Source of the DNA: a virus
Taxonomy: Duplodnaviria; Caudoviricetes
IMG/VR virus record: IMGVR_UViG_3300017707_000735
Location: 12,322-76,321 of that record
Length of the DNA stretch: 64,000 bases
Strand: one strand, 5' to 3'
The position numbers and the translations under genes are program-made. A model generated the notes under the pieces. That model searched no databases. It saw nothing but the letters and a program-made list of their open reading frames with translations, and was not told where the DNA came from. Below are positions 11,014 through 54,800 of this stretch, one piece after another. Position 1 is the first letter of the stretch, and each line of letters starts with the position of its first letter.

Positions 11014-11025
11014 ATATTTAGTATA

Positions 11026-11058: not shown

Positions 11059-11068
11059 TAAGTATAGC

Positions 11069-21353: not shown

Positions 21354-21354
21354 A

Positions 21355-24156: not shown

Positions 24157-24176
24157 ATTTAAAATAAGTATATTTA
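24145..24176 (+). promoter_or_regulatory. Putative promoter TTTA-N20-TATATTTA
   Basis: TTTA 24145-24148, 20-nt spacer, TATATTTA 24169-24176, upstream of ATG 24194. Confidence 0.5.
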
Positions 24177-24193
24177 GTATATAGCATGCTATT

Positions 24194-29503: not shown

Positions 29504-29513
29504 ACTTGTGAGG

Positions 29514-29545
29514 TTTATTAAACTTATAAAATTTTGATATTTTTA
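29514..29545 (+). promoter_or_regulatory. Putative promoter TTTA-N20-TATTTTTA
   Basis: TTTA 29514-29517, 20-nt spacer, TATTTTTA 29538-29545, in the intergenic gap before ATG 29567. Confidence 0.45.
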
Positions 29546-29566
29546 CAATACAAAGAATACTAAAGC

Positions 29567-36000: not shown

Positions 36001-39000
36001 CAAGCATTAGCTGATAAAGGTATCTATGTAGACCTAGAAGAGTTTGCTGATTGGATTGAAGATAAAGAGAAGTTACCTTCACAGTTTGAAGATGCTGTTA
36101 ATAAGCGTGTCATCAAAAAGGGTAGCATTCTATATGATGAGTATGCTAAAATGTTCCAGCAAATAGCTGACATGCAGTTAAAGAAACCTGCTGGAGAAAA
36201 ACTAGATGTAGACGGACAGCTTAAAGCTGAGATTGAAAAAGCAGAGGAAGCAAAAGCAGCTAAGCTAGCTAAAGCTAAGAATGACTATGATGAGAAGTTA
36301 AAAGAAGCTATTGGTTATACAGAAGAAGAATACGCAGCACGTGTAAAAGAAACTACTTCTGAACTTACGCCTGAACAAAAAGAAAGGTTAGATGATCTCA
36401 CTGCATTAAAAGAACGTGTAGATAATACTATAGTAAATTCAGATGAAGACATAGAAGCTATGCTAGCAATATCTAAAGACTTTAAGAGTCTTGATCTTCT
36501 AGAATTGTATACTATGCAACTACTTGCTCTTAGTAAAGACAGAGCAGGTAAGAAAAAAGCTAAAGAATTTAATAGTGAAACGTCAGAAGAATTTTTTAAA
36601 GAAAAGGTTTCTGACCCAGAAGAGAAGAATGATTTCTATGCAGCCTATTATGGGCGTTATGTAGCAAGTACTCTTCTAGAAAAAGAGATTAAAAAACTTG
36701 AAGATCTAGCTGGTGAAACAGAAGAAGATACTGCAGAAGAAATAGTAATCAAAGAACAGCCTGCTTACATTGAGTATCAAGAGATTGTAGCTAAGATTAA
36801 TGAAGAGTATGAAAAGATCTTTGCTGAGATTATTGAACGTTATAAAGAGAAAGGTTCAAAGGTAACATCTGTGGATGATGCTAAAGCTGTACCTGCTAAG
36901 TCTACCATTACAGTAGACACACCATGGAATGAATTACCAAAGGATCTTCAGAAATTACTACAGCCTAAGTTTAATGAGTATACTAAGAAAAGAAAGTATG
37001 CTAAAGAAGATGCTGCTACTAAAGCTAAGATCAGAGAAAACTGGTTAAAGACTCCGGAAGCGCAAGAGATAGTTAAAGATTATCTGAATGCACAGATTGG
37101 TACGGAAGAAGAAGTAGAAGTGCTTCTTGAAGAACCACCAACATTGTTGTTTGAAAAGAAAACTCCATTAGAGTTGTCTCAAGCAAGCTTTCAGGAATTA
37201 CAAACACTTATTGATTCTCTTCAAAAAACTGTTAACACTAAACAAAAATTTGACAAAAGAACCAAGAAGTATGTCTCTGCAACTGCAAAAGAGCTTAATA
37301 ATGCAAAGGAAGATTTAAAAAATCTTAAGGCTTATATTGCATTTAGAAGATCAATCACTCCGGTTAAACCAGAGGCAGAACGTGTAGCGGCAGTACTTAA
37401 GCGTAATATTCTTGATAGACAAGGTGAAGTTACAATAGATAGAGATTCTGAAGGTGAAACAATTGGTAGAAGAATTGAGGGTGTAGAGTATGAAGATGGA
37501 GAGTATGCAGCACGTGTAACACAAGAAGTGGAAGATGTATTGCAAGATATTAATCCTGACTATGAGCCTTATCTATACTCAGGTTTAAAACCAAAAGTCA
37601 ATGCTCAAACAGGAAAAGTTCAACCAAGTACAATTGATACTGTGCTTATTGAATTAGATGCTTATGTTACTTCTGGTAAAAAGGATAAGACACTAGACGA
37701 AAAAGTTACAAAACTTACAGATCTATTGTCTACCTATTTTAAACGAGGATTGCTTAAAAGATTTGGTACTGAAAAGAAATTAAAGCTTGTACGAGAAAGA
37801 TTTATACTGAATGGCAAAGCAACCGGTTTAGAATTTACTGATGATAATATCAAGAAAGTTATTCAAGAGTATGCTGACTGGGGCAGCTCCTTTGCAGGAA
37901 CAACAGTAGATAGATTAGGACGTGACTTCTTTATGGATAAGAAGCTCACTAAGCCTGATAACATGTCACCTGAAGCATTCAAGTCTTTATTAGAAATACT
38001 TAACCGTTTTGCTAACCAGATCCGGGACAGAAATATGGTTGTGATTTCTGAGAACATGCTTGTCTTTGATAAAGATTACAAAGGTAAAAATGGAGATAAG
38101 AAAGGTATAGTAGGTGAGATGGACTTACTTGGCTTCAGAGAAGATGGTAGCTTTATCATTATTGATATGAAGACCGGTACTTCAGCACGTTGGGAGAACT
38201 TTAATCCTCCGGCAGATATTAATGTTGACTTGCTTAAAAAAGCCAGCTTTGGTAAAAAACCAATTCTAATCAATGAGTCAATCATTAACTGGAAGAAAAC
38301 AGGTTTTGAAAGCATTGATGAAGTAACAGATAGAGTTGGAGAAATTGATGCCATTGTTCTTAAAGAAACCTATGGTGAAGATAAAAGAGGAAATGTTACC
38401 GGTTTAGTAGAAATTGAAGGAGATGGTGGAACTATTGATGTAGAAGTTACATTCAATACTGATAAGTATACAGCTAAAGGTACTCCTGATAAGTATAGCA
38501 AAAGACCTAACTATAGTGTTCAACAGACATTCTATAGAAATAGCTTCTTTAATATGTCAGGTGAAATGCCTGATGGTATATTCTTATTGGGCTTTGAAAT
38601 TGAAGCTGATGAAGATGGTTACATCAAGTCACTTAAGTTGCCAGAAATTGCAGATGAAAAAACAATGCTTATTGAGCTTGAGCCAGTAGAAGAAGTAAAC
38701 AACTATTTGCCTCTTAAGACTGCTGCTCCTCAAGAAGGTGGAGGTGAAACAAAGAAAGGTAGAAAGAAAAAGAAAGCTCCAACCAATCAATCAGACATAG
38801 AGACTAAGAAAGCTGATGTAGAAAAAAGGAGAAAAGAAGCGTTGAAAGGTAGTGAGATTAATTTTGAACCCCTCACGAGTACAGTTGATGGTAGTTGGAA
38901 TAAAGCCAAACCCATTAATGATGAATTAGAAAATAGATTCAGAAACTCTTTAGAAGAAGGTGATAAAATAATTACTGGCAATAATGAAACTATTTTTTTT

Positions 39001-40899
39001 AGAAATGGTAAAATTGTAAAAAAAGATGGTAAAGATTATGGATTCTCAGATATTCCTGTTACAGCTATTTTAATGAGGGGAGCAAAGATAGATAGAACAG
39101 ATAAAATCAATGCTAAATACGATGCAGAACTAGCTGCTTTAAGTGAAGAACAAGAAGAAGAGCCAAGTGAAGTTATAGAATACAAACCTAAATCACCATT
39201 CCTAAAAGACAATGTAGGTAAACAGATCCTATTCAATGGTAGACTTGGTACGCTGGTATCATTCCCACATGACTATGGTGACTATGGTTTAGAGACAGAA
39301 GATGCAGTATACTCTATTCAAGGAGATGCAGAACAAACTCTAAGTGAAGCCGGGGTATCTACTGTAAGAGTTAATGGTAAAGATGTCTTTGGTGATCCTG
39401 TTGTAGCTGGAGAGATCTATGAGATTGAGTTTACTGATGAGTCTGAGACAAATGCTGTGATCAACGGTGTGGAATATACAGTTGAAAGAAATGCTAAAGG
39501 TGGTGTTAAGTCTGTAAGATACAGAAAGAATGACAAGGCTATCAGTGATATATCAATTCAGATAAATGAACTTAAAGCTAAAGCTGCGGACTTAATAAAA
39601 CAATATGACACTCTTTCAAAGAAAGATCCAGAGAATATTACTTTGGCTCCTTTGTTTGTCAATATAATGAGTACTGAGAATAAGGTTGAACTTTTGGAAA
39701 GCAGGAGAGATGTTCTTATTGATGATAACATAGAAGTAATAAGTAGAGATAAGAATATTATTCAAGCTCTTCAAAGTTTATCTAGTACTTTCAAGAACTC
39801 AAAAGGTAAAGATGAAGAGAAGGATGATCTTGAAAGTATAAAGAACAAGGCAGTCAACTCAGGCGCTATTGAAGCTATGGCAAATATAATGGATGAGGGA
39901 TACCCTGAGAAGTTTGATATGCTAATAACTAACCCTGCATCACTCACAAAAATAGACATAATTAGATTCAGAGCATATCTTGAGAAGTGTCAAGATGCCT
40001 TTGAAGAGTTAAGAGTAAGAGAAGCTGCCGCATCAAAACTTACAACAGATATAGAAAAAGGTATTGCCCAATTGGGAATTTTGTTAAATTATATTAAGAA
40101 CCTAGAGTATACTCAGAATGGAAAAGTTAAAGCAAAGCAGTCAGCAGAAACCCAAGGACTCAGACAACAGCTACAAGAAGATGAAAATCAATCTGTTGTT
40201 CAGGACACTATCGGAAGACAACCAGGAGAAGTTCCTGCAGGAAAAGCTCCACGGGGAAGAAAAGCCAAAAACACAACGGAGCTAAAGAATTCCCTGAAAG
40301 CAGGCTTGGCTGGTAAGAGTCTTGAAGAGTTAAACCAAGAACTTGATGAAGAGAATGAAGGTGTCAGCATTGATGACATAAGGGATGCCTTTGAGAATGC
40401 TACTAGAGAGACTTTAGATGAGCTTTACAAGTTTTACATGAGCGAGATCCAAGAAGGAAACATTCAGATTGGTGATCCTAATCTTATTACAGAAATGTAT
40501 AAAAGACGTGATCTAGAGTTAGGTACTAAAGTGGATAAAAATTCTATTGAAGTGGGTACTAAACTTGCCCGCAAAAATGGTAAATTTACAGAGGTTGTGC
40601 AGGTAACAAACATAGTTGAGGACGAGTACACCATACTACCAGTAGGAGGTGAAGAAAGGGTTGTAAGCTTGAAAACACTTCAGAAATATAAAATTGTTAG
40701 TGATATGACAGACGAGGAAGAAGACGTTGAAACTTTTACAGATGAAACTGAAGAGTCAGCACAAGAAACACCAGAAACAATTACTGATGCACTTAAAAAT
40801 GAGGCTGTGATAAATGATGCCATTGAGAAAACTAGTAAAATGACTAGAGCAGAACGCAGAGCTCAGATGGCAGAGGAAAATAAAAACTGTAAATTATAA
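33004..40899 (+). CDS. Giant cargo/ejection protein with a Gly-rich hydrophobic segment and a PD-(D/E)XK nuclease-like domain
   Basis: 2631 aa. GGIIGAAGGPQGAAGGTFVGGAVG membrane-like stretch, long coiled coils, GEMDLL..IIDMKTG..YSVQQTFY nuclease motifs. Ends in NCKL*. Confidence 0.8.
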   Translation: MAENQTPEPEDISGGAQMINQGSTDIDNFLPFGGDNPMGGVTPTYNPSPLRQAFPRISSLDNSTYPVKDNVTGLAPFTTKPNQAAPISLNDKLDARFAHMNNQLRGLQDNNAYAKIQAYDASSAGAHRARYKAYGQATFDKIGFNPELNNEELFNAGTTGFDDFARWATVSAWPLFSRGFIANPKSYGGLFTGDFGQDIEEAKAYEEYNAIGYSSKGGIGAFMTNALNSFSYTAGIIVEAIAEEALVGGIIGAAGGPQGAAGGTFVGGAVGALKGLAAVPKALFQMGRQGATLAANLRRLDEMSEARRLFNDASSTVGNFLNPFDNTTNAVTAGLNNANNITRLARSANTFGGFYNDIKNVNMALSEGRLEGGFVENNTYKELYDDYYAKFGVAPDDQKQREFRDVARKAGADATFYNTLLINYSNKLVIPNVMKGGVLRSLSGYTDDIADFGTHSIVLNPKKGFELVRNNLVTSLKALKNPATYGKVSLNYFKRNVTEGIQENAQDVIADYLQRSYIAAYNDPAKTNHDYAKAILKNAVWKQFSAQGLETFASGFVMGAFAGPLNNIPKYAGIGYNKYIKYRGEYDKYVTERGESGKQLVDTLNQIYNDPKEFFKHRYFNYGNQSLASKIADDDKTTPGEYMDQRDAAFISQMQTVLSTGTMKYFIDQIKSYQQRSPKDVEDALGLAEGEGMKAIQRVDTLVARAKRMERRYDYFKKKVGKNPVDLSLFDKDSDDYRKAALLHSAWEVGVNSQLFMGESFDRNLERIAGITDTFGQISQFSNIPSSAVMPLLDQQRLANEFDLLKSEISVLEQSGKPQTAELSKKKQQLEDLSDFQKSLAAVQLTVIQKEAIQIRKQELIEQGMTPKDAAVQAEQKFEEDFDDLANELISDLKETVTKYLLNLSGSEVEYTKLMNKLQEEGEIEGIDYAMTQLIDLHKLTYENQALVKYINVLQDPVEFAIHVNRNLEWMTEMYNNKTEYFKDVVNNTVEQKEYNDLLQALADKGIYVDLEEFADWIEDKEKLPSQFEDAVNKRVIKKGSILYDEYAKMFQQIADMQLKKPAGEKLDVDGQLKAEIEKAEEAKAAKLAKAKNDYDEKLKEAIGYTEEEYAARVKETTSELTPEQKERLDDLTALKERVDNTIVNSDEDIEAMLAISKDFKSLDLLELYTMQLLALSKDRAGKKKAKEFNSETSEEFFKEKVSDPEEKNDFYAAYYGRYVASTLLEKEIKKLEDLAGETEEDTAEEIVIKEQPAYIEYQEIVAKINEEYEKIFAEIIERYKEKGSKVTSVDDAKAVPAKSTITVDTPWNELPKDLQKLLQPKFNEYTKKRKYAKEDAATKAKIRENWLKTPEAQEIVKDYLNAQIGTEEEVEVLLEEPPTLLFEKKTPLELSQASFQELQTLIDSLQKTVNTKQKFDKRTKKYVSATAKELNNAKEDLKNLKAYIAFRRSITPVKPEAERVAAVLKRNILDRQGEVTIDRDSEGETIGRRIEGVEYEDGEYAARVTQEVEDVLQDINPDYEPYLYSGLKPKVNAQTGKVQPSTIDTVLIELDAYVTSGKKDKTLDEKVTKLTDLLSTYFKRGLLKRFGTEKKLKLVRERFILNGKATGLEFTDDNIKKVIQEYADWGSSFAGTTVDRLGRDFFMDKKLTKPDNMSPEAFKSLLEILNRFANQIRDRNMVVISENMLVFDKDYKGKNGDKKGIVGEMDLLGFREDGSFIIIDMKTGTSARWENFNPPADINVDLLKKASFGKKPILINESIINWKKTGFESIDEVTDRVGEIDAIVLKETYGEDKRGNVTGLVEIEGDGGTIDVEVTFNTDKYTAKGTPDKYSKRPNYSVQQTFYRNSFFNMSGEMPDGIFLLGFEIEADEDGYIKSLKLPEIADEKTMLIELEPVEEVNNYLPLKTAAPQEGGGETKKGRKKKKAPTNQSDIETKKADVEKRRKEALKGSEINFEPLTSTVDGSWNKAKPINDELENRFRNSLEEGDKIITGNNETIFFRNGKIVKKDGKDYGFSDIPVTAILMRGAKIDRTDKINAKYDAELAALSEEQEEEPSEVIEYKPKSPFLKDNVGKQILFNGRLGTLVSFPHDYGDYGLETEDAVYSIQGDAEQTLSEAGVSTVRVNGKDVFGDPVVAGEIYEIEFTDESETNAVINGVEYTVERNAKGGVKSVRYRKNDKAISDISIQINELKAKAADLIKQYDTLSKKDPENITLAPLFVNIMSTENKVELLESRRDVLIDDNIEVISRDKNIIQALQSLSSTFKNSKGKDEEKDDLESIKNKAVNSGAIEAMANIMDEGYPEKFDMLITNPASLTKIDIIRFRAYLEKCQDAFEELRVREAAASKLTTDIEKGIAQLGILLNYIKNLEYTQNGKVKAKQSAETQGLRQQLQEDENQSVVQDTIGRQPGEVPAGKAPRGRKAKNTTELKNSLKAGLAGKSLEELNQELDEENEGVSIDDIRDAFENATRETLDELYKFYMSEIQEGNIQIGDPNLITEMYKRRDLELGTKVDKNSIEVGTKLARKNGKFTEVVQVTNIVEDEYTILPVGGEERVVSLKTLQKYKIVSDMTDEEEDVETFTDETEESAQETPETITDALKNEAVINDAIEKTSKMTRAERRAQMAEENKNCKL

Positions 40900-40910
40900 A
40901 AGTTCTTAAG

Positions 40911-43900
40911 ATGGCTTGTAAAATAACTGAACAGCAGGTAATTCATATATATACTGATATCTATGAGGAATTAAAAGTAGGAATGGACAACCCGTCTGTT
41001 CCTGTTTTTGATATTAATTCATACATGAAGGACCTTTATGATGATTTAGTAGATGCCGCTGACCCAGATTCAGTACAGAAGACAATGCTTACAATACAAG
41101 CTGTTCCTGAGATTTATCAAAAGGTAGCCTTAAGATCAGATGTTAAAGCTTACATACTTAGTAAACCTAAGTTGAAGAACTCTTTTATGGATGTTATGCA
41201 GATGTCTCAAGACTTTGCTGACCTAAATAATGTTGCTCAGTTTTTAAAAAAAGCTAAGGTATCTAAGAAGTATGTTGATGCTGCTGTGCGTGTGTCAAAT
41301 ATGGCTAAAGGCCGTATGCAGATTATCAATGATGTTAACATGATTCTCAAAGAAGTGTTGATGCGAAGTGAGGCTACAGGTAGAATGAAGCCAATATCTG
41401 CATGGACACTGACTGGTCAAGAGTATATGCCCATTAATCCAGAGGGTGCTACTGATGAACAAAGAAATGCAATTATTGATGAGTCACAAATTCTTACATA
41501 TAAAGTAATCCGTGAAATAGTTAATAATGCTAAAAAGGCTACAGAAGAAGAGCAGGTTACATACCGTGGTATTCCTGTAGTTATTCAAGCAATGCGTAGC
41601 TCTGACATTGATATCAAATTCTTTGATGATTCTACTAGAGCAAAGTATGCTGAGAACAGAATTATAAACAGCGTACCTTTTAGAAAACTGCATGCAGAAG
41701 GTGTATCAGCTGTAATTTCAGATACAGATGGTAACGTTCTTTACTTTGATGAAGAGGGAAATATAGCTGATGAAGAATCTGGAAGACCGGTAATTCAAGG
41801 CTTTAGAAAAACGGCTATTAAAAATGGTAAACTTACTCTTAGTAACAATGCCAACTTTGCTACTGTATTAGTATCCCCAAAAGAGATAGCGGACAGACAA
41901 CAAAGGGAAGCCTTAGCAATGGGTATTGATTTCACTGCTTCTCACTATGATTATATTGTAAAAAGAGAAACTGAAAGAATTGAAAAAGAAGTAAATGATC
42001 TACATCTACTTAGAGAAAAGGTTTTAAGTGAGGAGAATGCAGGTGTACTATTACCTATCACAGGGGGTACGTTTGGTATTGTAGGAGAGAAGTTTGTACC
42101 ACTGTATACTACTAGTATTAAATCAGAAGACATTGCTGAGATACAAACTGAAAACATTAAAGAAGAAGGTGGGTATGCTTACTTTACTTTGAAAAGTGAT
42201 CCGGATGCAGGGCGTATTTATATGCAGCGTGCTAATATGCCTGAAGATCTTATTGATAGAATTGTAGATGTACTTAGTACAGATGCTAAGTTTAAAGGTG
42301 GTAAAACACTTACTGCAAAACAAAGAGTAGACTTTGCAAAAATCTTTTTAGGACCTTCTCCAAAATTACAAAACTATAGAACAACACCTATTTACATTAA
42401 GACTGTTGAGATAGACGGTGTTGAAGAGCTAATGGTATTGGTTAATGGTATTCCATTAGACATGGAAAGTGAAGATGAGATAGAATTTTTAAGAGACCAG
42501 CTTAAAAATCAAATTGTAGGGAAAGAAAAAACTTTCAGTGCTCCATTAAACTACTCATCTGATTATACAAACAAGACTTTTATTGATTATAGAATTGAAG
42601 GTGACAAGATAATAGCGGAAGAGGTTGACTATTTTGATTTCATCAAACCCTTTATCAATGTACTTTATACAGAAGAGTCTGCTCCATTTGTACCTGCCCG
42701 CAATGCTTATTTGAGTTATGCAATCCCAACAGAAGTACTAGGTGACTTTGAATTAGAAAAAGAGGAAGAAGCTCCTACTAAAAAAGAAACCAAAAAAGAA
42801 GAAGAGGAAGCTGAAGCTGGTACAGAAGACATTGGTAAAATCAATTTCTCACAACATACTGTAGCTGGATATGCTCCAGTAAAACAAGAAGTGATTAAGA
42901 AGGCTGATCTTGTGTTAGCTTTCAATCCTAGATTTACATCAGCATCTTCTATAGTTACAGCGAATGCAGTAGATAGAGCTGGTAAAGATTATTTCCCACA
43001 ACCTTTTGCAAAAAGTGGGGGTAAACTAGAATTGAAACAGGCTGCGATCAATGCTATTGTAACTCAAATCAATGCAGCTCCAGGTGGAGTGATTACTATT
43101 ACAGGTGATGATATCACAGAGCTAAAAGGATACTCTCAGGACGTATTGAACAACTTTATGTATAATACACTTAAAGCTGTTGTAGAGTCAGACAAACTTA
43201 AGATAGATATCACTAATATCATTACCACAGGTCAAACAGGTATTGAGCAAGCAGCAACTATAGCGGCAGCAAGACTAGGTCTAGAAGTTACTGTGATTGC
43301 ACCTAAAGGCTGGCAGTTTAAAGAATATGTAAAAGCACCAGCTAATACTAAATTTCAAAAGGGTACATTTAATAAAAGAGCTGACAAGCGTTCACCTGAG
43401 ACTAAGTTCAAAGCAAGGTTCAAGGTAAACAAACGTACTGCAAAAGCTGCAACTACTACAAAGAAAACAGCTGCTGAACAAAAAGCAGCAGATCAGGAAG
43501 TCTTAAATCAACCAACATCAGGTAGATTCAACATGGGTAAATTTAAAAGATCCATGAGTGTTGGGACTTTCTTTGATAAATACTTTATTACAGAAGCAGA
43601 TAAGAAAAGAGCTGATAACTGGTGGAGTAACTCTCCTTTGTCTACAGCTAAAGATGCTGATGGTAATTTGCTTATACCAGTTACTGTAATTACTGAGATA
43701 CTTAACTCTGATGCATTTGCAACTTGGTCACGTGCAGGTATTACGCTTAATCAAGCAGATGGTGGTACATCTGTAGACCTTTACCATGAAGCATGGCATG
43801 CATTCTCTCAGTTGTACTTAAGTATAGATGAGAAGACTGCTTTGTATGAAGCAATGAGAAAGTCTCCTAAGTGGGCTGATGCAGAATTTATAGAAATAGA

Positions 43901-46900
43901 AGAAGCAATAGCAGAGGACTTTAGAGATTTCATGCTTGGCAAAACTAAGCCTAAAGGTATCATTGGAAGAATCTTTGACAGAATTGCAAAAGCCATTAGA
44001 CTCTTGTTTGGTAAACTTACCAGAAGAGATATGGTTAGACCAAGGGACATAGCTGAAGTAAAAGGATACTTTGATGCTTTGTACAAGGGTGAGATTAATC
44101 ATCTTACTCCATCTGTAGAAAATGTAATGCCTGAGTTTGATGTATTGAACAGATCTAAGACCATCAATGTATTAAAACAGGAGACTAAGAACTACAGTCC
44201 ATTTACAATTGATGATTCTAAAAGAGTTACTGATGCTATTGATAGTGTCTTTGCGGAACTCTTCTTAAATTTTAATCAACACTTTGGTACATCTTCTGGA
44301 ATGTCTAGACTTCTTGATAACTCTTTTAATAGACAAGGGGCATATGAAAATGTTCTAGATGATTTTATCCGTAGAAGAGATGAGGCTCAAGCTGAATTAA
44401 AAGAACTAGCTGCGGAAAACAGAAAGTCTGACAACCCTGATCTAGATGCTGAGGCTGTGCTATCTGATAATCTATTACTATTAAGTAAAGTAATAGACAA
44501 CTTTGGGGACATTCCAAACTCTTTAACAGGAAAAGAAAAGAAAGGTGTGGTTGCACATCACATCAATTCTACAAGATTTAATGTACTCAAGGATACATAT
44601 GTAGAGCTTGAAGAAGATCCTGAAGCAACAGAAGAAAAAGAAGAAGAAACTAATAGTGTTGGTCAGACCATTCAATCAAGTGACGGTGGTAACATTAAGT
44701 CATCTAAAGAACTTGCTTCAGAAGAAACTCTAATGCTTATCTCTAGCATATTCAAATTAGAGAAAATAAAAGAAGGCAAGACTATTAGATATGAAAGAGT
44801 AAAAGACAAACTAGGCTTTTATGTTCTTGAGTCTAAAGACATCATGTGGAATAAACTAGCAAGAACTTTAGCTGGGTCATTGACTGAAAAGGATATTTAT
44901 AGTAGACTGATAAAGTTTGCTGATAACTATCCTGAGTTCCGTCAGATTACTGACTTGCTGCATAATCCTACTCAAGACTACGTTGATAGTAAAGAGTTTA
45001 ATACAGAAACAAAGTTCTGGCAGGATTTCAAGAAGCCAAGAATCCCATATGTGCAGTTAAACATTACAAAGAAAGTAACACCTTCATTAGAAGAAGGAAG
45101 AGATACAGTAGAGTTTTCATCAAGCATTGTAAATGCAAGCTTTGATGTATATGCTATTTACAAAGTGTGGTCATCCAACTTTAAAATGGCAGACCCAGCA
45201 GATAGTAGATTCATTAGTTCAGATAAAATTTCTAACATACTTGATGTTGAATTACTTGTAGCTGAGTTTGGAAAAAATGGAAAGCTAGACCCAAAGAGAA
45301 GCTTTGACTTCTTAGAAGCTCTTGGTATTACACTAGATAAAAATAGTGCTGAGATCAGTGCAATGATGGCTAAACCTAAGTTTGCTCAAGTATATGGTGT
45401 TGAGTATATCTATAGTTTGCTTAGAATGGTGAGTAAAGCTCTTAAGTCAGCTGATGAAGAAAAGGTGGCTGCAGCTAAGAAGTTTACCCGTAATCCAATT
45501 GAATATTTGATGAACGGTTTACCAGAAGCATTGAGAACAGATGAAAAGAATACTGAAGATGTAAGAGCAAGACTAAGAGCATTAGCAGAAATCAATATTC
45601 AATTCTCCGATAACTACTCTAACTTTAGTGTATTAAGTCCTGAGAAGAACCGTGTATGGGAACACTTCTTAGACAGTACTTTGACACGTGCCATGGGTGC
45701 TATTAATAAAGCAAAAAACCTGAAGTACCTGATTGATGAAGATGAAAATGAGTTTGACCTAGATGGTGAATTTAGACATATGCGTTGGTTAAAGGATTCT
45801 AATAATCCTCATATCAAGTACAGTGTTAATATGAACTCTATGTTCTTTATGAATGGACCTAATTTTGGGGACAGAAGAAAAATAGGAACAGACACTGAAG
45901 AAGTAAATCAACTTCTTTTGAATAATGTTGCTGGTACACAAATCTTAGAAGAGGGTAGTATAGAACCTGAAGATGGTGTGTCAACAAGTTCTGCTGATGC
46001 AACAACTAAGTTCTTACAAGAGATGAATACTATGTTGCTACGTGGTATTCAAGAGTTTATGCGTCATGCATCTAAATCAATGTCACAGGGTATCAGAGCA
46101 GAGAAGATCAATACTGCTTTATATGGTAACCAAGGTAAAGCTACAGATTACTTATACGTTGATATTGCTGACTTCCGTCCTATCCGCAAAGGAGAAGGTG
46201 AGTTAGAAGCATTTGAAATCATTAAGGGTTATGTAGCAGGTGAGCTTGAAAGAATTCAAAGATTCAAAGCTAATCTTAATGACAAGACTATTACTGATCC
46301 AGCTTTACAAATGAAGAACTGGGCTGGCTACAATAGAAAAGTCAGAAAGAAAGATGGGACTATTGTAATGGCCGGGGAAATCTTTACAGCATTTGATGAT
46401 GTTCTTAGTGAAGAAACTAAAGAAAAGTTATATGCTATTAAAGGTAACTTACTTGATGCCTTAGAGGCAGACGATGATCTATATCAGGATGTAAAAGCTG
46501 ATGTGGATAGCTACTTTGAAAAGCAAACAAAAGCAAATCTTGAAAGACTGTCTGAAGCTAGATATGTAGATCCGGCTCTTACTGATATTGCTTACCAAGA
46601 AGGTTTGACAAAAAAGCAAACAGATAAGGTTCTTGTAAAGGCTTACACATACAACTCTTGGATTCATAACTATGAGACTGTGATTCTTACTTATGGTGAC
46701 TTAGCACAGTATAACCATGAGAAGGAAGAGTTCCATAAGCGTAATGCCGGTATGACAGCACCGGGAAGAGGATTCAGAGCAGACCAAAGAGCTAGAAACT
46801 TCATAAACAGCAGTCTGTTCCAAAGATTATATGCAGAAAAGAACAATTACCAAATAAGAAATTATGATGGTAGATTACATACTGCTATTATCAAAGAGAA

Positions 46901-49900
46901 GAAAGTAGACTCTATCATGTATGAAGAGTACAAAGAGACTCTTTACCAAGATATCTTAGACCGTCTTAAGAATAACAAGACTATTAAGAACAAAAAAGAC
47001 TACGCAAAAAAGCTTGCTGAAACAGAAGCTAAAGAGTACTTAGGAATGAAAGAGGGTGATGGACAAGGTCATGTTACTTTGGAATCATACCGCATGCTTA
47101 AGACTCTTGAAGGTAACTGGTCAGATGAGCAAGAAGCCCTGTACAAACGTATTGTGAATAAAGAAGAGATTGGGGTACAAGATATCATTGAATACTTCCC
47201 ACCTTACAAATTACAGTACTTTGGAAACATGGATACAAAAGGTTTGTCATTAACTTCATTCCATAAGTTCTCATTGGCGCCATTAATTCCTTCAGTGAAT
47301 GGATCTTCAGTTCTCAATGAGCTGCATGACAAGATGATGAAGGATAATATTGACTATGTAGTATTTGAAACTGGTTCTAAGATTGGGCACATTGCACCTG
47401 ATGGAAAAGGTGATAATGTCTTTAATGAAGATGGTACTATAAACAAAGCTTCTACATTTACTGTAAATAAAGTATTTGCTGAGTTCTTAAAGAACCAGAC
47501 AGAAGTAAACAGCTCATTCAAAGAGAAGTCAATCTTCTCTACTCAGTTGCGTAAGTTAATTCTTGAAGGTCTTTATGAGAGAGGTGTAATTCAATCTCCT
47601 GATGAAAGTGAGATTACAAATGATAAAGTAAGAAGATACATTGACAACGTAGCAGAGTATACCGGCATTCTAAAATTAGAACTTCTAGAACAAGTTGGTT
47701 ATGATGAAAGAGTGATCAATGGTAAATCTGTTTATACACCAAGAAGCAAAGAAAGCACTAAGAAGCTAGCAGAACTTATCCGTAAAGAACTTGAAAGAGA
47801 TGATAAGTTAGGAGACCACTTGATTGAAGGTTTTGTGGATGTGACAGCGGACGGGTCATTAAGAAATGACTTATCACTACACCCTGAAGCACCGAAGATT
47901 GAGAAGTTACTACTTTCTATAATCAACAAAAAGATTATTAAGCAAAAGGTAAAAGGTGAGCCATTGGTTCAGGTATCTGCTGCTATGTATGAAGGTGTCT
48001 TTGGTAATCCATTAGATAAACTTAAGGAGGCTACTGATGCTGAAAAGAAAAAGTATAGGGGTTCTAACTTCCTTCCTACATATCATAGAAAGATTATTGA
48101 TTTAAATGCTCTCTATGAAAATGCTGATGTAGATGCTCTTAAGGCTTCCCTGAAAGAAAAGAAAAGAATACTTGAGGAGCAGTCAGCTTATTGGACACCT
48201 ACACATCAGAATGCTCTAAGAGATGAGATTCAGTATTTGGAAGATAAGATTGCTGGTAGAAAGCCAAAAGTAACTACAACTACAGATGGTACTACCTCAG
48301 CTATGAAAGTTATGATTGCTTTGCAAGGCGACTTCCAGTATCTACTGAATCTTAAGCATAATGATGGAGAAGAGATTGGTACAATTGACCGTCTCAATGA
48401 AATGATTAAGAATGAGGCATGGTTAGATAAAGACACTAACCGTAAGAGTATTACTATGGCCGGTGTAAGAATTCCAGTACAGGGTCTTAACTCTATGGAA
48501 TTCATGGAGGTGTATCACTTCCTTCCGCCAGAAGCAGGTAACATTATTATTCCTCCATCTGAGATTGTAGCTAAATCAGGGGCTGACTTTGATATTGATA
48601 AGTTGACTATTTTCATGCCTAACATTGGTGAAGACGGTGCTTACAAAGGTAGACTACTTAAAAAAGGTAAAACTAAAGAAGAGAGCATTCAGATTCTAAA
48701 AGATGCCATTGAAGAAGCTAAAACAAATAAAGAGTCTACTAAAGATATTATTAAGGCTCAGAAGGCAGCATTAGAAAATGAACTCATAGAAGATATCAAA
48801 AACATTCTTGAGCTTCCACAAAACTATCCTTCTTTGATTAGACCAAATGGTACCTATATTCTGAAGCCAATTGCGGATGAACTTGCACAGTATGTGATGA
48901 AGTATAATCCATATACTAACATGTCTTCTGAGTCACTTAACTATAAAGTATCTGATGATAATGGTGTTAAAACACTCTCTAAAATCATTAGTCCTACACG
49001 TGTTCTTGAAGTAGGTTACAACATATATAAGCATGAATCTAATGAGATTGGTAAGAAGACACTTGGTTTAGGAGCTGTTGAGAATACTTTCAACGTGATC
49101 ATGAACTCATTGGGCGCTAAGATGCCAGCTACATATCTACATGGTAAAGATAAGAAGCCAAGAAATATGGATCTATTCTTAAGACACCACACTATGCAGA
49201 ATGATGAAGGAGAAGAAGTTATTTCCCTGTCTAGTAGATATGATGTAGATAATGTATATAAGGTAGCCGATTTATTCTCTCAGATGATTAACGGATGGGT
49301 GGATGTTGAAAAAGATGCATGGATTTTCTTCATTCAGGGGAACTATGAGTTGGCACCAACCTTATTATATCTACTTAAAACTGGCGTACCTGTAGAAGAA
49401 GCTATTAGCTTTATGTCACAACCTTTAGTAAGAGAATATGTAAAAGAACAAAGACTTGGTAAAAGTACATTTGCCGAACCTCTTGGTAAAAAATCTTTAT
49501 ATGCATCAAAGGTTAAACAAGATGCTGCAAGTCGTGTGCTTAAAAAATACTTTGGTACAGATATTCCTGAGAAAAGATACTACTATGAAAGAAATGTTCT
49601 TTCAGATAAGTACTTTGCTGATAAAGAAGACAAAAACTTTACTAAAAAAGAAATGATGGATTTGATTAAAGGTTCATATCCAGATCTTGATAAAGCTTGG
49701 GATAGGTTTGTTGAGAAAAACAAAAGAGATCCTTACATGTATGAGTATAAGGATTTGATAAAAGAGTCTGAAGCGGAGGCAACTAAAAATGCATCTAGTG
49801 ACTTATCAAAAGTAATGTTTTTGCACTTCTTAGAGATTGAACAACAGATCAGTGGTCTTACTAAGTTAAAGATCAATTCAAATCCAGATACAGCAACTCA

Positions 49901-51848
49901 ATCATCATTTGCTGAAGTGGAGATAGTGGAATCTACAAGAGAAGACTTAGAGGAAGAAACAAAAATTGATCAGGAGTTAAGACGTGGATTAAGAGAGGAT
50001 GCTGTAATCAGTCCAATGTATAACAACGATCTTGCATTAGCATTGGTAGAGCCGTTGATGCCATTAAGATATCATGAAAATGTTTCTCAATGGATCATTA
50101 CAAACCTAGCAGACTTTAGAAATAATCTTGATGATACATTTGGTCCAGGAAAATTGACTCAAATGATTGATACTTTCAGAAATGACATGGTCAACATGCT
50201 TCTTCAGAATGCATTGAGAAAGTTCAATCTGGGACCTGCATACAAAGGTTATAATACAGAAACAGAAATTCCTGTAAATCTAGTAGACTACTTAAAGTTT
50301 GGCGCCTACGTTAAGAAGAATGCCAAAGGTGAAGACACTTTGTACATTGATGAAAGACAACTTAAGGAAGACTTTAGATATTCCCTATGGGAAAAAGATT
50401 CAGAGTATGAAGGTTCTTATGAAGATAGAGGTTTATATCCATTAGATGGACCATACTTCAGCAGCAATGCAAGAACAAATGAAGCTGCATACTTTGCGTT
50501 TGTAGCAGAACGTGAATACCTACGCTCAATCTTACCTGTTACAGATGTGGTTGAAACGAGAGAGTATAAAAAAGAGCTACGTGATACTAAGATGATACAT
50601 CCTGAAATGTCTGAAGTAGAACAAGGTAGATTCACTTATGAAAAGATTTTGGCAATGAGGGCATTGGATAATACGTTCAATCCTTACAAGTTGTTCCAAG
50701 ATCCTGAAAATGCATATGCTATCAAGTACAAAGAACTTATGGATAGAGATGCTGAAGTATACGGGGGTAAGCTTAAACAGGAGTATCCTGTACTAAGCAG
50801 ACTTATGATGGATACTAACTCTAATCAAACTTTCTATAACTTGTATGTAAATGAGAAAGACTATGATAATTCATTGTCCAATCTTTACAAGAAAAACATT
50901 GCAGACTTGGGTAATCCAGGTGTTGTTAAAGTAGCAGATCCTGAAGAGAACATGATGATAAGTGACTTCTTTGCAAGGTTACCATTGATCTCAATGATTC
51001 AAACAGGTTTAAACAAAACAAAGTTAAACTTCAATAATGTAGTTCCTCTAGAGCAGTATATAGACATCATGCGTGAGCAGACAGAAGAGTTTATGGATAT
51101 CTTAGAGGATGAAGAAAAAGCTGATAACTTCTTAGACAAATTCTTCTATACGTTCTTAGCTGCCAATAGAAGCAAAGCTGGTATGGAGGGTGGTTCAATT
51201 AACTCTAACAAAGGCAGATTTAAAGATTTATTCTTTACAAATAAACTAGAGAATGCTACTGAAAAGAAACTTAAAGGTGATGAGGCTGCTAAGAAGTTCT
51301 TAACGCCTACTAATACAGAAGACTTGTATGTATACTCTGAGGGTAATAAGACTCCAAAAGTGTATGAAGCAATGGCTAAGTACAATCCGGATGTCATCTT
51401 TGTTGTAAATGCTCCTAGATCTATGATGCTTGATAGAGAATTGAGGTTTAATGGTCAAGCAAGATTAGCAAACATAGAAGATGCAATGTCAATCATTTTC
51501 CCAACTTCTAATAAGTCACTAACTGATAACTACACAGGAGTTAAATCTGACAAGTATGAAGTAGTAAAAGCTATCTTTGAAGATGCTATTCAAAGAATCA
51601 AAAAAGAGCAAATGTATGGGAAACCAATTGCTTTTCCTAGATCAGGATTTGGGGATCCGAGCATCATGCCTAAAGAATTATTTGTATATTTATCTAAGAG
51701 ACTCTATGAAGAGTTTGGTTATGTAAATCCAGGCTCTACAATGTACAAAGAACTTGTTCAATTGATTACTGAGAAGCAAGGTATTACTGATGCAGAAATA
51801 GAGTTTAATTTTAATGAGGAGAATAATCCGTTTAAATGTGAATTGTAA
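40911..51848 (+). CDS. Virion-packaged single-chain DNA-dependent RNA polymerase (crAss/phi14:2 gp66-like) with accessory domains
   Basis: 3645 aa. RIPVQG...KSGADFDIDKL (DFDID at 48585-48599), upstream EGDGQG and FHKFS motifs, HEAWH zincin (43785-43799), a SLOG-like segment and a C-terminal macro-like segment. Confidence 0.93.
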   Translation: MACKITEQQVIHIYTDIYEELKVGMDNPSVPVFDINSYMKDLYDDLVDAADPDSVQKTMLTIQAVPEIYQKVALRSDVKAYILSKPKLKNSFMDVMQMSQDFADLNNVAQFLKKAKVSKKYVDAAVRVSNMAKGRMQIINDVNMILKEVLMRSEATGRMKPISAWTLTGQEYMPINPEGATDEQRNAIIDESQILTYKVIREIVNNAKKATEEEQVTYRGIPVVIQAMRSSDIDIKFFDDSTRAKYAENRIINSVPFRKLHAEGVSAVISDTDGNVLYFDEEGNIADEESGRPVIQGFRKTAIKNGKLTLSNNANFATVLVSPKEIADRQQREALAMGIDFTASHYDYIVKRETERIEKEVNDLHLLREKVLSEENAGVLLPITGGTFGIVGEKFVPLYTTSIKSEDIAEIQTENIKEEGGYAYFTLKSDPDAGRIYMQRANMPEDLIDRIVDVLSTDAKFKGGKTLTAKQRVDFAKIFLGPSPKLQNYRTTPIYIKTVEIDGVEELMVLVNGIPLDMESEDEIEFLRDQLKNQIVGKEKTFSAPLNYSSDYTNKTFIDYRIEGDKIIAEEVDYFDFIKPFINVLYTEESAPFVPARNAYLSYAIPTEVLGDFELEKEEEAPTKKETKKEEEEAEAGTEDIGKINFSQHTVAGYAPVKQEVIKKADLVLAFNPRFTSASSIVTANAVDRAGKDYFPQPFAKSGGKLELKQAAINAIVTQINAAPGGVITITGDDITELKGYSQDVLNNFMYNTLKAVVESDKLKIDITNIITTGQTGIEQAATIAAARLGLEVTVIAPKGWQFKEYVKAPANTKFQKGTFNKRADKRSPETKFKARFKVNKRTAKAATTTKKTAAEQKAADQEVLNQPTSGRFNMGKFKRSMSVGTFFDKYFITEADKKRADNWWSNSPLSTAKDADGNLLIPVTVITEILNSDAFATWSRAGITLNQADGGTSVDLYHEAWHAFSQLYLSIDEKTALYEAMRKSPKWADAEFIEIEEAIAEDFRDFMLGKTKPKGIIGRIFDRIAKAIRLLFGKLTRRDMVRPRDIAEVKGYFDALYKGEINHLTPSVENVMPEFDVLNRSKTINVLKQETKNYSPFTIDDSKRVTDAIDSVFAELFLNFNQHFGTSSGMSRLLDNSFNRQGAYENVLDDFIRRRDEAQAELKELAAENRKSDNPDLDAEAVLSDNLLLLSKVIDNFGDIPNSLTGKEKKGVVAHHINSTRFNVLKDTYVELEEDPEATEEKEEETNSVGQTIQSSDGGNIKSSKELASEETLMLISSIFKLEKIKEGKTIRYERVKDKLGFYVLESKDIMWNKLARTLAGSLTEKDIYSRLIKFADNYPEFRQITDLLHNPTQDYVDSKEFNTETKFWQDFKKPRIPYVQLNITKKVTPSLEEGRDTVEFSSSIVNASFDVYAIYKVWSSNFKMADPADSRFISSDKISNILDVELLVAEFGKNGKLDPKRSFDFLEALGITLDKNSAEISAMMAKPKFAQVYGVEYIYSLLRMVSKALKSADEEKVAAAKKFTRNPIEYLMNGLPEALRTDEKNTEDVRARLRALAEINIQFSDNYSNFSVLSPEKNRVWEHFLDSTLTRAMGAINKAKNLKYLIDEDENEFDLDGEFRHMRWLKDSNNPHIKYSVNMNSMFFMNGPNFGDRRKIGTDTEEVNQLLLNNVAGTQILEEGSIEPEDGVSTSSADATTKFLQEMNTMLLRGIQEFMRHASKSMSQGIRAEKINTALYGNQGKATDYLYVDIADFRPIRKGEGELEAFEIIKGYVAGELERIQRFKANLNDKTITDPALQMKNWAGYNRKVRKKDGTIVMAGEIFTAFDDVLSEETKEKLYAIKGNLLDALEADDDLYQDVKADVDSYFEKQTKANLERLSEARYVDPALTDIAYQEGLTKKQTDKVLVKAYTYNSWIHNYETVILTYGDLAQYNHEKEEFHKRNAGMTAPGRGFRADQRARNFINSSLFQRLYAEKNNYQIRNYDGRLHTAIIKEKKVDSIMYEEYKETLYQDILDRLKNNKTIKNKKDYAKKLAETEAKEYLGMKEGDGQGHVTLESYRMLKTLEGNWSDEQEALYKRIVNKEEIGVQDIIEYFPPYKLQYFGNMDTKGLSLTSFHKFSLAPLIPSVNGSSVLNELHDKMMKDNIDYVVFETGSKIGHIAPDGKGDNVFNEDGTINKASTFTVNKVFAEFLKNQTEVNSSFKEKSIFSTQLRKLILEGLYERGVIQSPDESEITNDKVRRYIDNVAEYTGILKLELLEQVGYDERVINGKSVYTPRSKESTKKLAELIRKELERDDKLGDHLIEGFVDVTADGSLRNDLSLHPEAPKIEKLLLSIINKKIIKQKVKGEPLVQVSAAMYEGVFGNPLDKLKEATDAEKKKYRGSNFLPTYHRKIIDLNALYENADVDALKASLKEKKRILEEQSAYWTPTHQNALRDEIQYLEDKIAGRKPKVTTTTDGTTSAMKVMIALQGDFQYLLNLKHNDGEEIGTIDRLNEMIKNEAWLDKDTNRKSITMAGVRIPVQGLNSMEFMEVYHFLPPEAGNIIIPPSEIVAKSGADFDIDKLTIFMPNIGEDGAYKGRLLKKGKTKEESIQILKDAIEEAKTNKESTKDIIKAQKAALENELIEDIKNILELPQNYPSLIRPNGTYILKPIADELAQYVMKYNPYTNMSSESLNYKVSDDNGVKTLSKIISPTRVLEVGYNIYKHESNEIGKKTLGLGAVENTFNVIMNSLGAKMPATYLHGKDKKPRNMDLFLRHHTMQNDEGEEVISLSSRYDVDNVYKVADLFSQMINGWVDVEKDAWIFFIQGNYELAPTLLYLLKTGVPVEEAISFMSQPLVREYVKEQRLGKSTFAEPLGKKSLYASKVKQDAASRVLKKYFGTDIPEKRYYYERNVLSDKYFADKEDKNFTKKEMMDLIKGSYPDLDKAWDRFVEKNKRDPYMYEYKDLIKESEAEATKNASSDLSKVMFLHFLEIEQQISGLTKLKINSNPDTATQSSFAEVEIVESTREDLEEETKIDQELRRGLREDAVISPMYNNDLALALVEPLMPLRYHENVSQWIITNLADFRNNLDDTFGPGKLTQMIDTFRNDMVNMLLQNALRKFNLGPAYKGYNTETEIPVNLVDYLKFGAYVKKNAKGEDTLYIDERQLKEDFRYSLWEKDSEYEGSYEDRGLYPLDGPYFSSNARTNEAAYFAFVAEREYLRSILPVTDVVETREYKKELRDTKMIHPEMSEVEQGRFTYEKILAMRALDNTFNPYKLFQDPENAYAIKYKELMDRDAEVYGGKLKQEYPVLSRLMMDTNSNQTFYNLYVNEKDYDNSLSNLYKKNIADLGNPGVVKVADPEENMMISDFFARLPLISMIQTGLNKTKLNFNNVVPLEQYIDIMREQTEEFMDILEDEEKADNFLDKFFYTFLAANRSKAGMEGGSINSNKGRFKDLFFTNKLENATEKKLKGDEAAKKFLTPTNTEDLYVYSEGNKTPKVYEAMAKYNPDVIFVVNAPRSMMLDRELRFNGQARLANIEDAMSIIFPTSNKSLTDNYTGVKSDKYEVVKAIFEDAIQRIKKEQMYGKPIAFPRSGFGDPSIMPKELFVYLSKRLYEEFGYVNPGSTMYKELVQLITEKQGITDAEIEFNFNEENNPFKCEL

Positions 51849-54800
51849 TGGGATGCAGTAGTAAGATAAACAGTCTAGACATGTTGAAAGCTGAGAATAT
51901 TATCAGCGATACAAGAGAGATTCTAGACTTTGGAAGATTTGATAATGCTAACCTAAGATTGACAGAGTTTGCCAAAGCAAGTTATGGTTTAATGCCATTA
52001 TCTGGTGAGCTTTTGTATGACACATCTAGCAGAAAAACGGATGGTAAAGTAGTTTACAGAGCAGAACCTAATGAACTGCTTTTTTCTGCACTTGATAATC
52101 TGATTGATGAGCAGGAGACTAAGTTGATAATGCAACAAAGAGATGCATCTAATGAAGATGAGGTAGCTTCTTTTATGAGAAAAGAGCAAGAGTTATCCCT
52201 ATTGGAACAGCTTAAGAACTATTTAAAAGAAGAGGACTACAGATTAAAATCACCTGCCCCATCTTGGATTACTGATCCTACAACTACTGTAGGAAGGATG
52301 TTAGAAGAAATTAACATTCCTATAGTTCAAGAGACTCTTATTTTCTTAAGAGAACAGAACAGACAAATACAAGAACTTAAATCTAATGCAGATAAAATTA
52401 CTAAGGACTTGTATAAACAAGCAGGTATCAATCCTGATAAATTATTGCAGGATGAGTCTACTCAATTAGAAAATGTTCAAAGAACTACTAGAGGTGAGTT
52501 AAGATTACCAACTCCAGAACTAGACAAACTCAATGCATTAAAAACTTCTAACAGAGATTTGTATGAACAGATTGAAGATCTAGGTGATCAGCAATTTCAA
52601 CTTACAACAAAGGCTTCTAGAAGTTTTCAAAATGAAGTTAAAAAATTCTTTGACTCATTGATGGAGTATGAGCAAATAGAGCTTGGTACTACATCTGCTA
52701 ATGTATTTGAGAACATAGATTTGAGTCAGACTGAATACTATGGAGAGAACAATGAGAGCGTACCGGTAATAGTGGACGGTGTCAAAGTTGGGGACCTTTC
52801 ATACGGACTTAGCGGGAATTATGCTGTGCTTAACTTTGCTAATATACCTGATGAATATAAGAAAAGCGGGGTACTGAAGAACGCTTTGGTTGAACTGGCT
52901 CAATCTGTAAAAACAGATGGGCTTACGCTTGTATCAGATGCATTAGATCCCTTGAGTAACATGGTATGGGCAGAGCTTATCATGGAAAACCAAGCACACA
53001 TTAGTGATGACTTAGTTTATACATACGGAGAAGGACCAGCTTTACTTGTTCCTAAAGCTGATTTAGACAATGAAAGATCTAGACTGCTAGGTAACATATT
53101 TGCTCAGAAGCTTTCTGCTGCAATGAAAACTTCCTATGAAGAAGTTACAAGAGAACAAGCTGCTAATATTCTAAAGAATGCACCTATTAAGTATAATGGT
53201 GAACCTGCATTTGTCTATGCTGGTACAGTATACTTTGTAGAAGGTGGTCTTAATTTAGATACTGCGCTGCATGAGTTTTCCCACCCACTGATATCAGCAA
53301 TCAGAAGAGATAATGGCGGGTTATTTGAAAATCTCTATGAGCAGCTTATGGGTACAACAGAGGGTGACCAACTCCGTGAGAAGATGGCTAAACTTTACCC
53401 TGAACTTAAAGAAGGTAGTGTACTATACAAAGAAGAGATCTTAGTACATGCTTTAAGTAAGAGAGCAACTAACCAGGTAACTCAACAAATAGAAACAGAT
53501 GGATTTACAAGATTCATTAGAAATCTTTTGTATGCTATCAAACAAGCACTTAAAGGTGCCTTTGGTAGAGTTAATGTAGCTGACATAAATGCTAATACTA
53601 CACTAGATGAGTTAGCACAAAGACTACTTACCGAAAGCTTTGAACTCACTGATGGAATGACGGATGAACAGTTGGTTCAGTTTGCCCGTGCAGAAAAAGG
53701 TAGGATTAACAAACTAGACAACACCAGTAAGGATCTTGCTAAAAACATTAGTGCAGATGCTATGATAGCATTGATTAATGACTTCTATTACAGAAACAAA
53801 GAAGTGCTTGATGCTGCTAAACGTGTAAGCAAGAAGAGTCCGCAATACAAGGTCTTGGAAAAAGCTATGTTTGAGAATGAAGGTGACCGATTGCTCAAAG
53901 ATATCCAAGCAAGTTTGAGAAAGTATCAGACTATTCAAGTTTCTGCAAAGAGAACGAGAGCTCAGATTGTTGATGATACAATAGATGCTGAAACAAGAAG
54001 ACTTCAGGAAGTGACTCTGCAGGCTACTACAGTAGTACACAGCTTTGCTGTAATTAACAATGTCATGGATAACATCTATGGTAGTTTAATGGAGCTTATA
54101 AAAAGTGGTGAGTATACTTCTAGACAAGGTGAAAAACTTTTGGCTGTTTATAAGAGTTCAGTATATGCATATGATGAGCTTATTAAAGATACTGACCGTT
54201 TGTTGGTAGAAGATTTTGGTTTGAAGACTGACAATCCTTTTGCACAGATGCTCAACCAAACTAGTATGACAATCCAGAGATGTAAAGATGTCATCAATAA
54301 AATTAAGTTTGAGAGAGCTACTGAATTCTACAAAGAGTACACTCAGTACATGAATGACTTTGTAAATAAAGAGCTCAAGCAAAACCTGGATCAGTTAAAG
54401 ACACGCCTGTCAGAAGAAGAGATAGAGGATCTATACAACAGAATTGTAAACAACACCATTACTGATGAAGAAGTAAATGCACTGAAGGACAAGAGTCTTA
54501 GTGCAACTGGTGTGGGTGCATTTATTGATCACTTCAGAACATACAGAATTACAGAAGATAAGATCCGTGGATTATTATCCGGTACACAGAATGATGTATC
54601 ATGGTTCAATAGAATGCTTGAAGCATACACATCTAGTAATGATCCTATAGTAGGTGCCTTTGCTATATTTGTAAATGACTTGGAGACAGAAGCCATGCAA
54701 GAAGTCATGGATGACTCTGAGGTATTCAGACAAAAGCTAGAGCCACTATTAAAGGCTATAGGCTACAATGCTAATCAGACAAGACAAATACTTGACCTTA

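Follow-up and report, generated by a model that had tools for sequence, protein, structure and literature searches.

How might a tailed phage pack, order and eject a chain of cargo proteins that amounts to about 0.7 MDa or more? The question is raised by a 64,000-nucleotide stretch of a caudoviricete genome (IMG/VR record IMGVR_UViG_3300017707_000735, positions 12,322 to 76,321 of that record), hereafter the window, in which a co-linear series of giant open reading frames (ORFs) lies on the plus strand. Three consecutive proteins in this series, here called A, B and D, are nearly devoid of cysteine (Cys), and most of the few Cys that they have lie at the termini where one protein faces the next. 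B is the predicted virion RNA polymerase (vRNAP) of a crAss-like phage. We consider it likely, from the sequence evidence set out below, that disulfides between these facing Cys tether A, B and D in the phage particle as one linear thread. The features that bear on this proposal are as follows.

33004-40899, plus strand: protein A, 2631 amino acids (aa), with Cys2329 and Cys2629 only
39988-39990, plus strand: codon of the internal Cys2329 of A, which is not conserved
40888-40890, plus strand: TGT codon of A Cys2629, third from last; A ends in N-C-K-L and the stop codon
40911-51848, plus strand: protein B (predicted vRNAP), 3645 aa, with Cys3 and Cys3643 only
40917-40919, plus strand: TGT codon of B Cys3; B starts with M-A-C
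48585-48599, plus strand: DFDID catalytic motif of two-barrel RNA polymerases, B residues 2559-2563
51837-51839, plus strand: TGT codon of B Cys3643, third from last; B ends in K-C-E-L and the stop codon
51848-58573, plus strand: protein D, 2241 aa, with Cys3 and Cys812 only
51854-51856, plus strand: TGC codon of D Cys3; D starts with M-G-C
54281-54283, plus strand: codon of the internal Cys812 of D, which is unique to this phage
21340-32986, plus strand: three giant proteins of 938, 1769 and 1139 aa with zero Cys

The ORFs, each started at the first ATG in its frame, and their Cys counts were computed for the window, and the codons were confirmed by reading the sequence. A, B and D together contain 6 Cys in 8,517 aa, and at the two junctions four of the six occupy residue 3 or the third position from the end. 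The two termini that face outward from the trio, the N-terminus of A (MAENQTPE) and the C-terminus of D (KYSSRPPQ), have none. An earlier note on this DNA had reported by manual reading that the cargo proteins are nearly free of Cys, that TGT at 40888, 40917 and 51837 and TGC at 51854 encode the terminal Cys, and that the chain ends lack Cys, and the computed counts and positions agree with it on each point. That note had left out the 938-aa protein at 21340-24156, which also has zero Cys. The three upstream proteins (938, 1769 and 1139 aa) contribute 3,846 aa and no Cys, which gives 6 Cys in 11,425 aa with the 1769- and 1139-aa proteins and 6 in 12,363 aa with the 938-aa protein as well; these three are probably cargo too, but outside the proposed chain. 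At the average Cys frequency of the window (0.86%; its tail proteins have 2.5-7.4%), A, B and D should contain about 73 Cys, and the probability of six or fewer is 3e-24. The probability that at least four of six would fall inside the four facing 5-residue zones is 5e-10. As for internal Cys that manual reading might have overlooked, the computed counts show just the two in A and D. The site of A Cys2329 is Ser or Ala in relatives with 69-77% identity, and that of D Cys812 is Ser in relatives with identity up to 92%. Both internal Cys are thus recent substitutions, since close relatives hold Ser, Ala or Gly at these sites. TAA stop codons at 40897-40899 and 51846-51848 part the three ORFs, the second within a TAATG overlap of B and D (51846-51850), and the window does not encode the block as a single-frame polyprotein.

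Sequence comparison identifies the window as the RNA polymerase cargo block of a crAss-like phage, in which A is gp47-like, B is the virion RNA polymerase and D is gp49-like, these names being those of phage crAss001. A matches crAss001 gp47 (blastp E 6e-11) and is also a homologue of phi14:2 gp078, an RNA polymerase-associated cargo protein; B matches phi14:2 gp077 and crAss001 gp50 (E 2e-9 to 5e-9); and D matches crAss001 gp49 (E 3e-8) and phi14:2 gp076 (E 3e-6). The three phi14:2 proteins gp078, gp077 and gp076 are also named g067, g066 and g065, and gp077 (gp66) matches PDB entry 6VR4 across its full length of 2180 residues. The D-F-D-x-D motif columns show no variation in an alignment (A2) of B with crAss001 gp50, phi14:2 gp077 and p-crAssphage gp44. 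The phi14:2 and crAss001 blocks hold the same homologous proteins, the same DFDxD polymerase and the same terminal-Cys pattern as the window, although the proteins of the window are 1.3-1.7 times longer than their counterparts, and all three genes are co-linear in the window whereas gp47 is inverted in crAss001. Other searches added little. A megablast search of the region against phage records gave zero matches, PHROGs and Pfam searches of the window yielded nothing beyond LysM in D and a single unnamed PHROG in B, the 938-, 1769- and 1139-aa proteins matched no PHROG family, and phmmer searches of PDB sequences with A, B and D returned nothing usable, the weak haemagglutinin HA2 matches to D (E 0.1-0.4) being set aside as coiled-coil noise. 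The source record is a single contig of 76,321 bp. Given that cultured crAss-like genomes reach about 100 kb, it presumably covers only part of the phage genome. The products gp078, gp077 and gp076 are annotated as virion components of phi14:2 from tandem mass spectrometry, and the crAss001 homologues of A, B and D were found in virions by mass spectrometry, were assigned to the cargo zone of the capsid and must partly unfold for exit through the tail (PMC10172136). A, B and D are most likely packed in the head and injected.

D contains an HExxH motif at residues 475-479 and a LysM domain at residues 1924-1962, and its counterpart in phi14:2 (gp65) is called zincin-like in the phi14:2 polymerase preprint. 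An HExxH motif also occurs in B at residues 959-963 (YHEAWHAF; window 43785-43799), and B residues 905-1034 align with crAss001 gp47 residues 2105-2231 (E 8e-5). By this comparison the zincin-like module seems to vary in location: some lineages carry it in A, the present phage in B. Another HExxH is encoded at window 23530-23544, inside the 938-aa protein.

The cultured phages follow the same rule as the window. The only Cys of phi14:2 gp078 is its final residue, gp077 has Cys3 and Cys2179 only, and gp076 has Cys3 only. The only Cys of crAss001 gp47 is third from last; gp50 (2412 aa) has Cys5 and Cys2404 plus one internal Cys; and gp49 has Cys5 only. The A gene lies on the strand opposite B and D in crAss001 (gp47) and in cr128_1, and the terminal Cys are kept all the same. 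The rule is therefore a property of the proteins and not of DNA junctions, because A genes on the opposite strand still end in Cys. The earlier note had described a pairing of Cys across gene junctions, and of this the pairs themselves are real whereas adjacency of the genes is unnecessary.

Conservation of the terminal Cys in homologues had been named beforehand as a test of the proposal, and the outcome, from homologue sets drawn out of a collection of 5.8 billion proteins, bears it out for all three proteins. Among 120 homologues of B (38-73% identity), Cys3 is present in 117 and a Cys within the last four residues in all 120; 114 have exactly two Cys, both terminal, and internal Cys number 3 in 423,121 aa. 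For D, with identities down to 22%, a Cys occurs at residues 3-7 in 93 of 101 homologues, 80 have exactly one Cys, and only one has a C-terminal Cys. The pattern in A is the reverse, with a Cys within the last 10 residues in 88/90 homologues, within the first 8 residues in 0/90, and exactly one Cys in 82/90. Conservation of the terminal Cys reaches down to 22-25% identity. The B and D homologues that seem to lack the N-terminal Cys were not accepted as true exceptions, as most look like mis-called or truncated starts. Two further alignments of 48 sequences each, covering the last 350 residues of B (A3) and the first 450 residues of D (A4), have a mean column identity of 12-13%, and the terminal Cys is the sole invariant column in each.

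Scoring of all junctions between consecutive giant ORFs at 79 IMG/VR loci, found through the polymerase core, gave 124 distinct junctions, at which Cys is present on both sides in 123, on one side in 0 and on neither side in 1. The lone Cys-free junction lies in a B gene broken by a frameshift and is a pseudo-junction with no real protein boundary. The Cys is at residue 3-6 on the N-terminal side and within the final ten residues on the C-terminal side, and both TGT and TGC occur, mostly TGT. Two loci were considered as exceptions and rejected. At L028 (identical to L016) B is frameshifted and its first frame ends where an open second frame takes over, and at L004 D is frameshifted (16651-17463) with no Cys at the break, its true start being MAC. 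The break in the B gene of L028, at 10738-10891, likewise has no Cys. These frameshifts could be assembly errors or real pseudogenes.

Further evidence comes from lineages in which the block is fused or split. p-crAssphage gp44 is a fusion of B and D that keeps Cys3, facing the penultimate Cys of gp45, and has neither a Cys pair at its internal seam nor a C-terminal Cys. Fusions of A and B (L087, L096, P0310 and gp076 of the Suoliviridae phage cr1_1) have no Cys at the seam or the N-terminus, and keep the C-terminal Cys, which faces the N-terminal Cys of the next protein. Flavobacterium phage Fpv1 gp33 (4401 aa) has a sole Cys, second from last, and no N-terminal Cys; blastp detected in it a B-like core only and no A-like segment, and its size, its B-like core and the missing N-terminal Cys suggest that it is probably an A+B fusion. 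The fused forms (gp44 for B+D; cr1_1 and probably Fpv1 for A+B) hold the same modules in the same order as the window, but a peptide bond and no junction Cys pair stand where the window has stop codons and a Cys pair.

Splits show the opposite change. An additional chain member is present in four lineages (L046, 655 aa; L098, 689 aa; L030, 396 aa; L070, 583 aa), and each of these extra proteins has exactly two Cys, one per end. The extra protein of L030 bears the N-terminal domain of D, and the rest of D restarts with MAC; the end of the L046 extra protein resembles the C-terminus of the unsplit B in its sister L047. In L030 the two parts of the split D gene flank a 197-aa ORF (15745-16338), which has three Cys and may be a mobile element responsible for the split. 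A quick FastTree of the polymerase core, from which L098 was left out and in which some deep placements are on long branches and unsure, puts the L030, L046 and L070 splits and the L087, L096, cr1_1 and gp44 fusions in separate clades, beside relatives of the other architecture. Since split and fused forms fall in separate clades, there were at least seven independent events in which both Cys changed together. Throughout, each end protein has one terminal Cys and each middle protein has two, a count that fits a linear chain and not independent anchors. The paired gain and loss of Cys at splits and fusions is a strong argument for an interaction between the facing termini. A side observation concerns p-crAssphage gp47, a homologue of crAss001 gp45 (L021 5588-8161), whose sole Cys is second from last; no obvious N-terminal Cys partner is nearby, and the next protein, gp46, has no Cys. 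It is possible that the chain has a further member or a different partner in some lineages.

How would such a chain work? The near-C-terminal Cys of A would form a disulfide with Cys3 of B, and the near-C-terminal Cys of B would form one with Cys3 of D, inside the particle or after exit from the cell. The resulting thread of about 8,500 residues would be the functional equivalent of the polyprotein of the fused relatives, with joints that can be cleaved by reduction. Because the linking Cys are at most about 10 residues from the ends, a joint would be barely thicker than a single chain, and the purging of internal Cys would prevent wrong disulfides in proteins that partly unfold for passage through the tail. 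Packaging in a 1:1:1 ratio and an ordered, uninterrupted passage through the tail would be consequences, and the reducing cytoplasm of the host would open the links and release the polymerase. We infer the chemistry of the bond, the docking of the B tail on D considered below, the order of ejection and release by reduction alike, and the assignment of partners is drawn from covariation. More tentatively, and with chances that we put somewhat short of even, Crassvirales and their relatives may throughout deliver the vRNAP as a covalent pseudo-polyprotein, with disulfides setting stoichiometry and ejection order and with reduction freeing, and perhaps activating, the polymerase.

A precedent for a bond of this kind is known from another phage. 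The cryo-electron microscopy structure of the pre-ejectosome of cyanopodophage A4 (Anabaena phage A-4L) has a disulfide between gp27 Cys1715 and gp26 Cys5, and the C-terminal helix of gp27 is docked in gp26 (PNAS 2025, PMC12002296). The A-4L genome encodes in gp27 (1717 aa) no Cys other than Cys1715 and in gp26 (1114 aa) none other than Cys5. Like the window, phage A4 has consecutive giant Cys-poor ejection proteins, with a Cys third from last in the upstream protein and one near the N-terminus of the downstream protein. However, it is a member of Saffermanviridae with a 42-kb genome and so differs from crassviruses, and it has one link between two proteins, with no DFDxD polymerase identified in the pair, whereas the window would have a chain with two junctions. 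A blastp search of the A4 gp26 and gp27 against A, B, D and crass relatives found no match at E 0.01, and the likeness is, by analogy, a resemblance of mechanism and not membership of a family. Coliphage N4 is a second system for comparison, as it too ejects a giant virion RNA polymerase with accessory proteins and strongly avoids Cys. The N4 proteins gp50 (3500 aa), gp51 (644 aa) and gp52 (150 aa) (L103, 34523-47523 of the record) have zero Cys, which makes a thiol tether impossible in N4 and indicates that Cys avoidance is general in ejected proteins while the tether is not. A structural paper on N4 from 2026 makes no mention of disulfides.

Predicted structures are consistent with a docking site at the B-D junction. 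AlphaFold2 (AF2) models give D residues 5-95 (window 51860-52132) as a compact N-terminal domain, with a predicted local distance difference test (pLDDT) score of 97-98 over residues 11-90, that consists of a small helix and a beta-hairpin, with Cys3 directly before helix 1. This domain is conserved as far as phi14:2 gp076, and in L030 it is on its own Cys-tipped protein. The last 20 residues of B, which include Cys3643, have a pLDDT of about 50 and follow a confident domain, and the phi14:2 preprint reports that a few terminal residues of recombinant gp66 were untraceable in the crystal. The N-terminal domain of D is thus a candidate docking site on which the tail of B would dock, and the models fit an arrangement of docking plus bond similar to that of phage A4. 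A Foldseek search of the AF2 models of the B C-terminus and the D N-terminus against the PDB gave no match at E <=0.001, and the cyanophage A4 proteins were not among the matches listed. Foldseek matches of the D domain were weak and winged-helix-like. The last 350 residues of B (window 50796-51845) had weak Foldseek matches to dual-specificity and tyrosine phosphatases (E 0.05-0.2, template modelling (TM) score <=0.45), and one homologue of B carries the Joint Genome Institute (JGI) name protein-tyrosine-phosphatase; a CX5R-type active site is impossible in B because B has no internal Cys. The Foldseek matches did not bear out a macro-like fold for this domain either.

An alternative explanation is that the terminal Cys anchor each cargo protein to another component of the virion, such as the portal barrel, the inner capsid or other cargo, and not to its neighbour in the block. 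Many disulfides occur between structural proteins of crAss001, whose gp45, a cargo protein, is attached to the portal (PMC10172136), and p-crAssphage gp47, with its penultimate Cys and no obvious partner, could be read in the same way. Anchoring does not, however, predict that middle proteins have two Cys and end proteins one, that both Cys are lost together at a fusion and gained together at a split, or that one-sided junctions number zero, and we regard it as unlikely.

It is also possible that the facing Cys interact otherwise than by a disulfide, through a shared metal ion or other thiol chemistry such as a cysteine switch on the zincin domain. The HExxH motifs of D and B and the zincin-like gp65 of phi14:2 lend themselves to such a reading, and the covariation at splits and fusions is compatible with any pairwise interaction. 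This too we consider improbable, since two thiols alone make a poor metal site, the zincin module changes protein by lineage (it is in A in p-crAssphage) while the Cys rule is constant, and the sole solved case, that of phage A4, is a plain disulfide.

The disulfides could have a different topology, in which A pairs with D while B is circularised through Cys3 and Cys3643 or is chained to further copies of B. B bears both types of end, and partners are indistinguishable by sequence. Yet A+B fusion removes the C-terminal Cys of A and the N-terminal Cys of B and leaves the C-terminal Cys of B and the N-terminal Cys of D in place, whereas B+D fusion removes the opposite pair. Moreover, the extra proteins that were split off bear both ends, and in phage A4 the C-terminal end of one protein is bonded to the N-terminal end of the protein from the next gene, all of which makes another topology very unlikely. 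Finally, a functionless pattern due to chance, ancestry or a nucleotide signal at the junctions that happens to encode Cys, which the abutting or overlapping genes (TAATG) and the prevalence of TGT among terminal Cys codons might suggest, merits next to no credence given that the Cys is the sole invariant column in such divergent alignments, that both codons occur and the position varies (residue 3-6, last to tenth from last), that the rule persists with A on the other strand, and that at least seven independent coupled gains or losses stand beside chance probabilities of about 1e-9 or lower. An origin in a nucleotide motif or in translational coupling specifically is ruled out by the opposite-strand A gene of crAss001 and by the varying codons and positions.

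Several points weigh against a disulfide-linked A-B-D thread, although we favor it. The disulfide bond in crassviruses is proposed from sequence, and sequence alone cannot fix the partners of the Cys; B could cyclise or polymerise, and A could pair with D. Gut crassviruses infect anaerobes with a reducing cytoplasm. Because the cytoplasm of these hosts is reducing, oxidation would have to follow release or happen inside the particle. Disulfides are present in the tail of crAss001 virions (PMC10172136), but neither that structure paper nor the phi14:2 preprint mentions terminal Cys or a covalent link. The Cys-free gp50-gp52 of N4 indicate that a tether is not generally needed for ejection of a giant polymerase, and the precedent of phage A4 is only an analogy, as its gp26 and gp27 have no detectable similarity to A, B or D. 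The seven internal Cys of p-crAssphage gp44 indicate that the purging of Cys is not absolute. Lastly, phage cr108_1 (L019 12921-29658) has a 2967-aa B-like protein that lacks Cys at its termini, and an A protein with a terminal Cys was not seen there; its next junction retains the Cys pair, with the end of a 798-aa ORF (..LCK) facing MANVC. A gap of 290 nt precedes the 798-aa ORF, which is annotated with a Leu start, and the oddity of the polymerase gene in cr108_1 may reflect an intron, a recoding event or mis-annotation.

The earlier note had stated that no description of such a mechanism was known. Full-text literature searches found no description of the rule for Crassvirales, so this part of the statement stands for crassviruses; the gp27-gp26 disulfide of phage A4 was the only published case found (PMC12002296), and the bond itself was therefore already known. 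What appears to be new is the proposed chain of several links with the polymerase in the middle, which is conserved throughout an order and changes in step with the fusion and fission of the genes. The paper on phage A4 describes one bond in one structure, and no conserved rule, multi-link chain or coupling to fusion and fission (PMC12002296). The crAss001 structure paper suggested that the order of ejection is probably set by packing and by mutual interactions of the cargo (PMC10172136), and a disulfide-linked thread, if real, would provide a concrete mechanism of tethering that can be tested in the cultured phages crAss001 and phi14:2. It would explain why the giant proteins have been purged of Cys and how the block can be fused or split across lineages without loss of function. 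The phi14:2 preprint proposes that the polyproteins of fused relatives are cleaved into their components. The thread would also predict a 1:1:1 ratio of A, B and D, for which the published cargo copy numbers are volume-based estimates only. If the proposal holds, the first step of infection by the most abundant phages of the human gut would be redox-gated, and what was a single bond in a cyanophage would become a general, evolutionarily enforced rule, with a signature for annotating chained ejection proteins.

Elsewhere in the window, the outer virion and tail proteins (4272-13361) are the opposite of the cargo block in being extremely rich in Cys, with a maximum of 45 Cys in 608 aa (7.4%). 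A 180-aa protein encoded at window 87-629 has Cys as its last residue.

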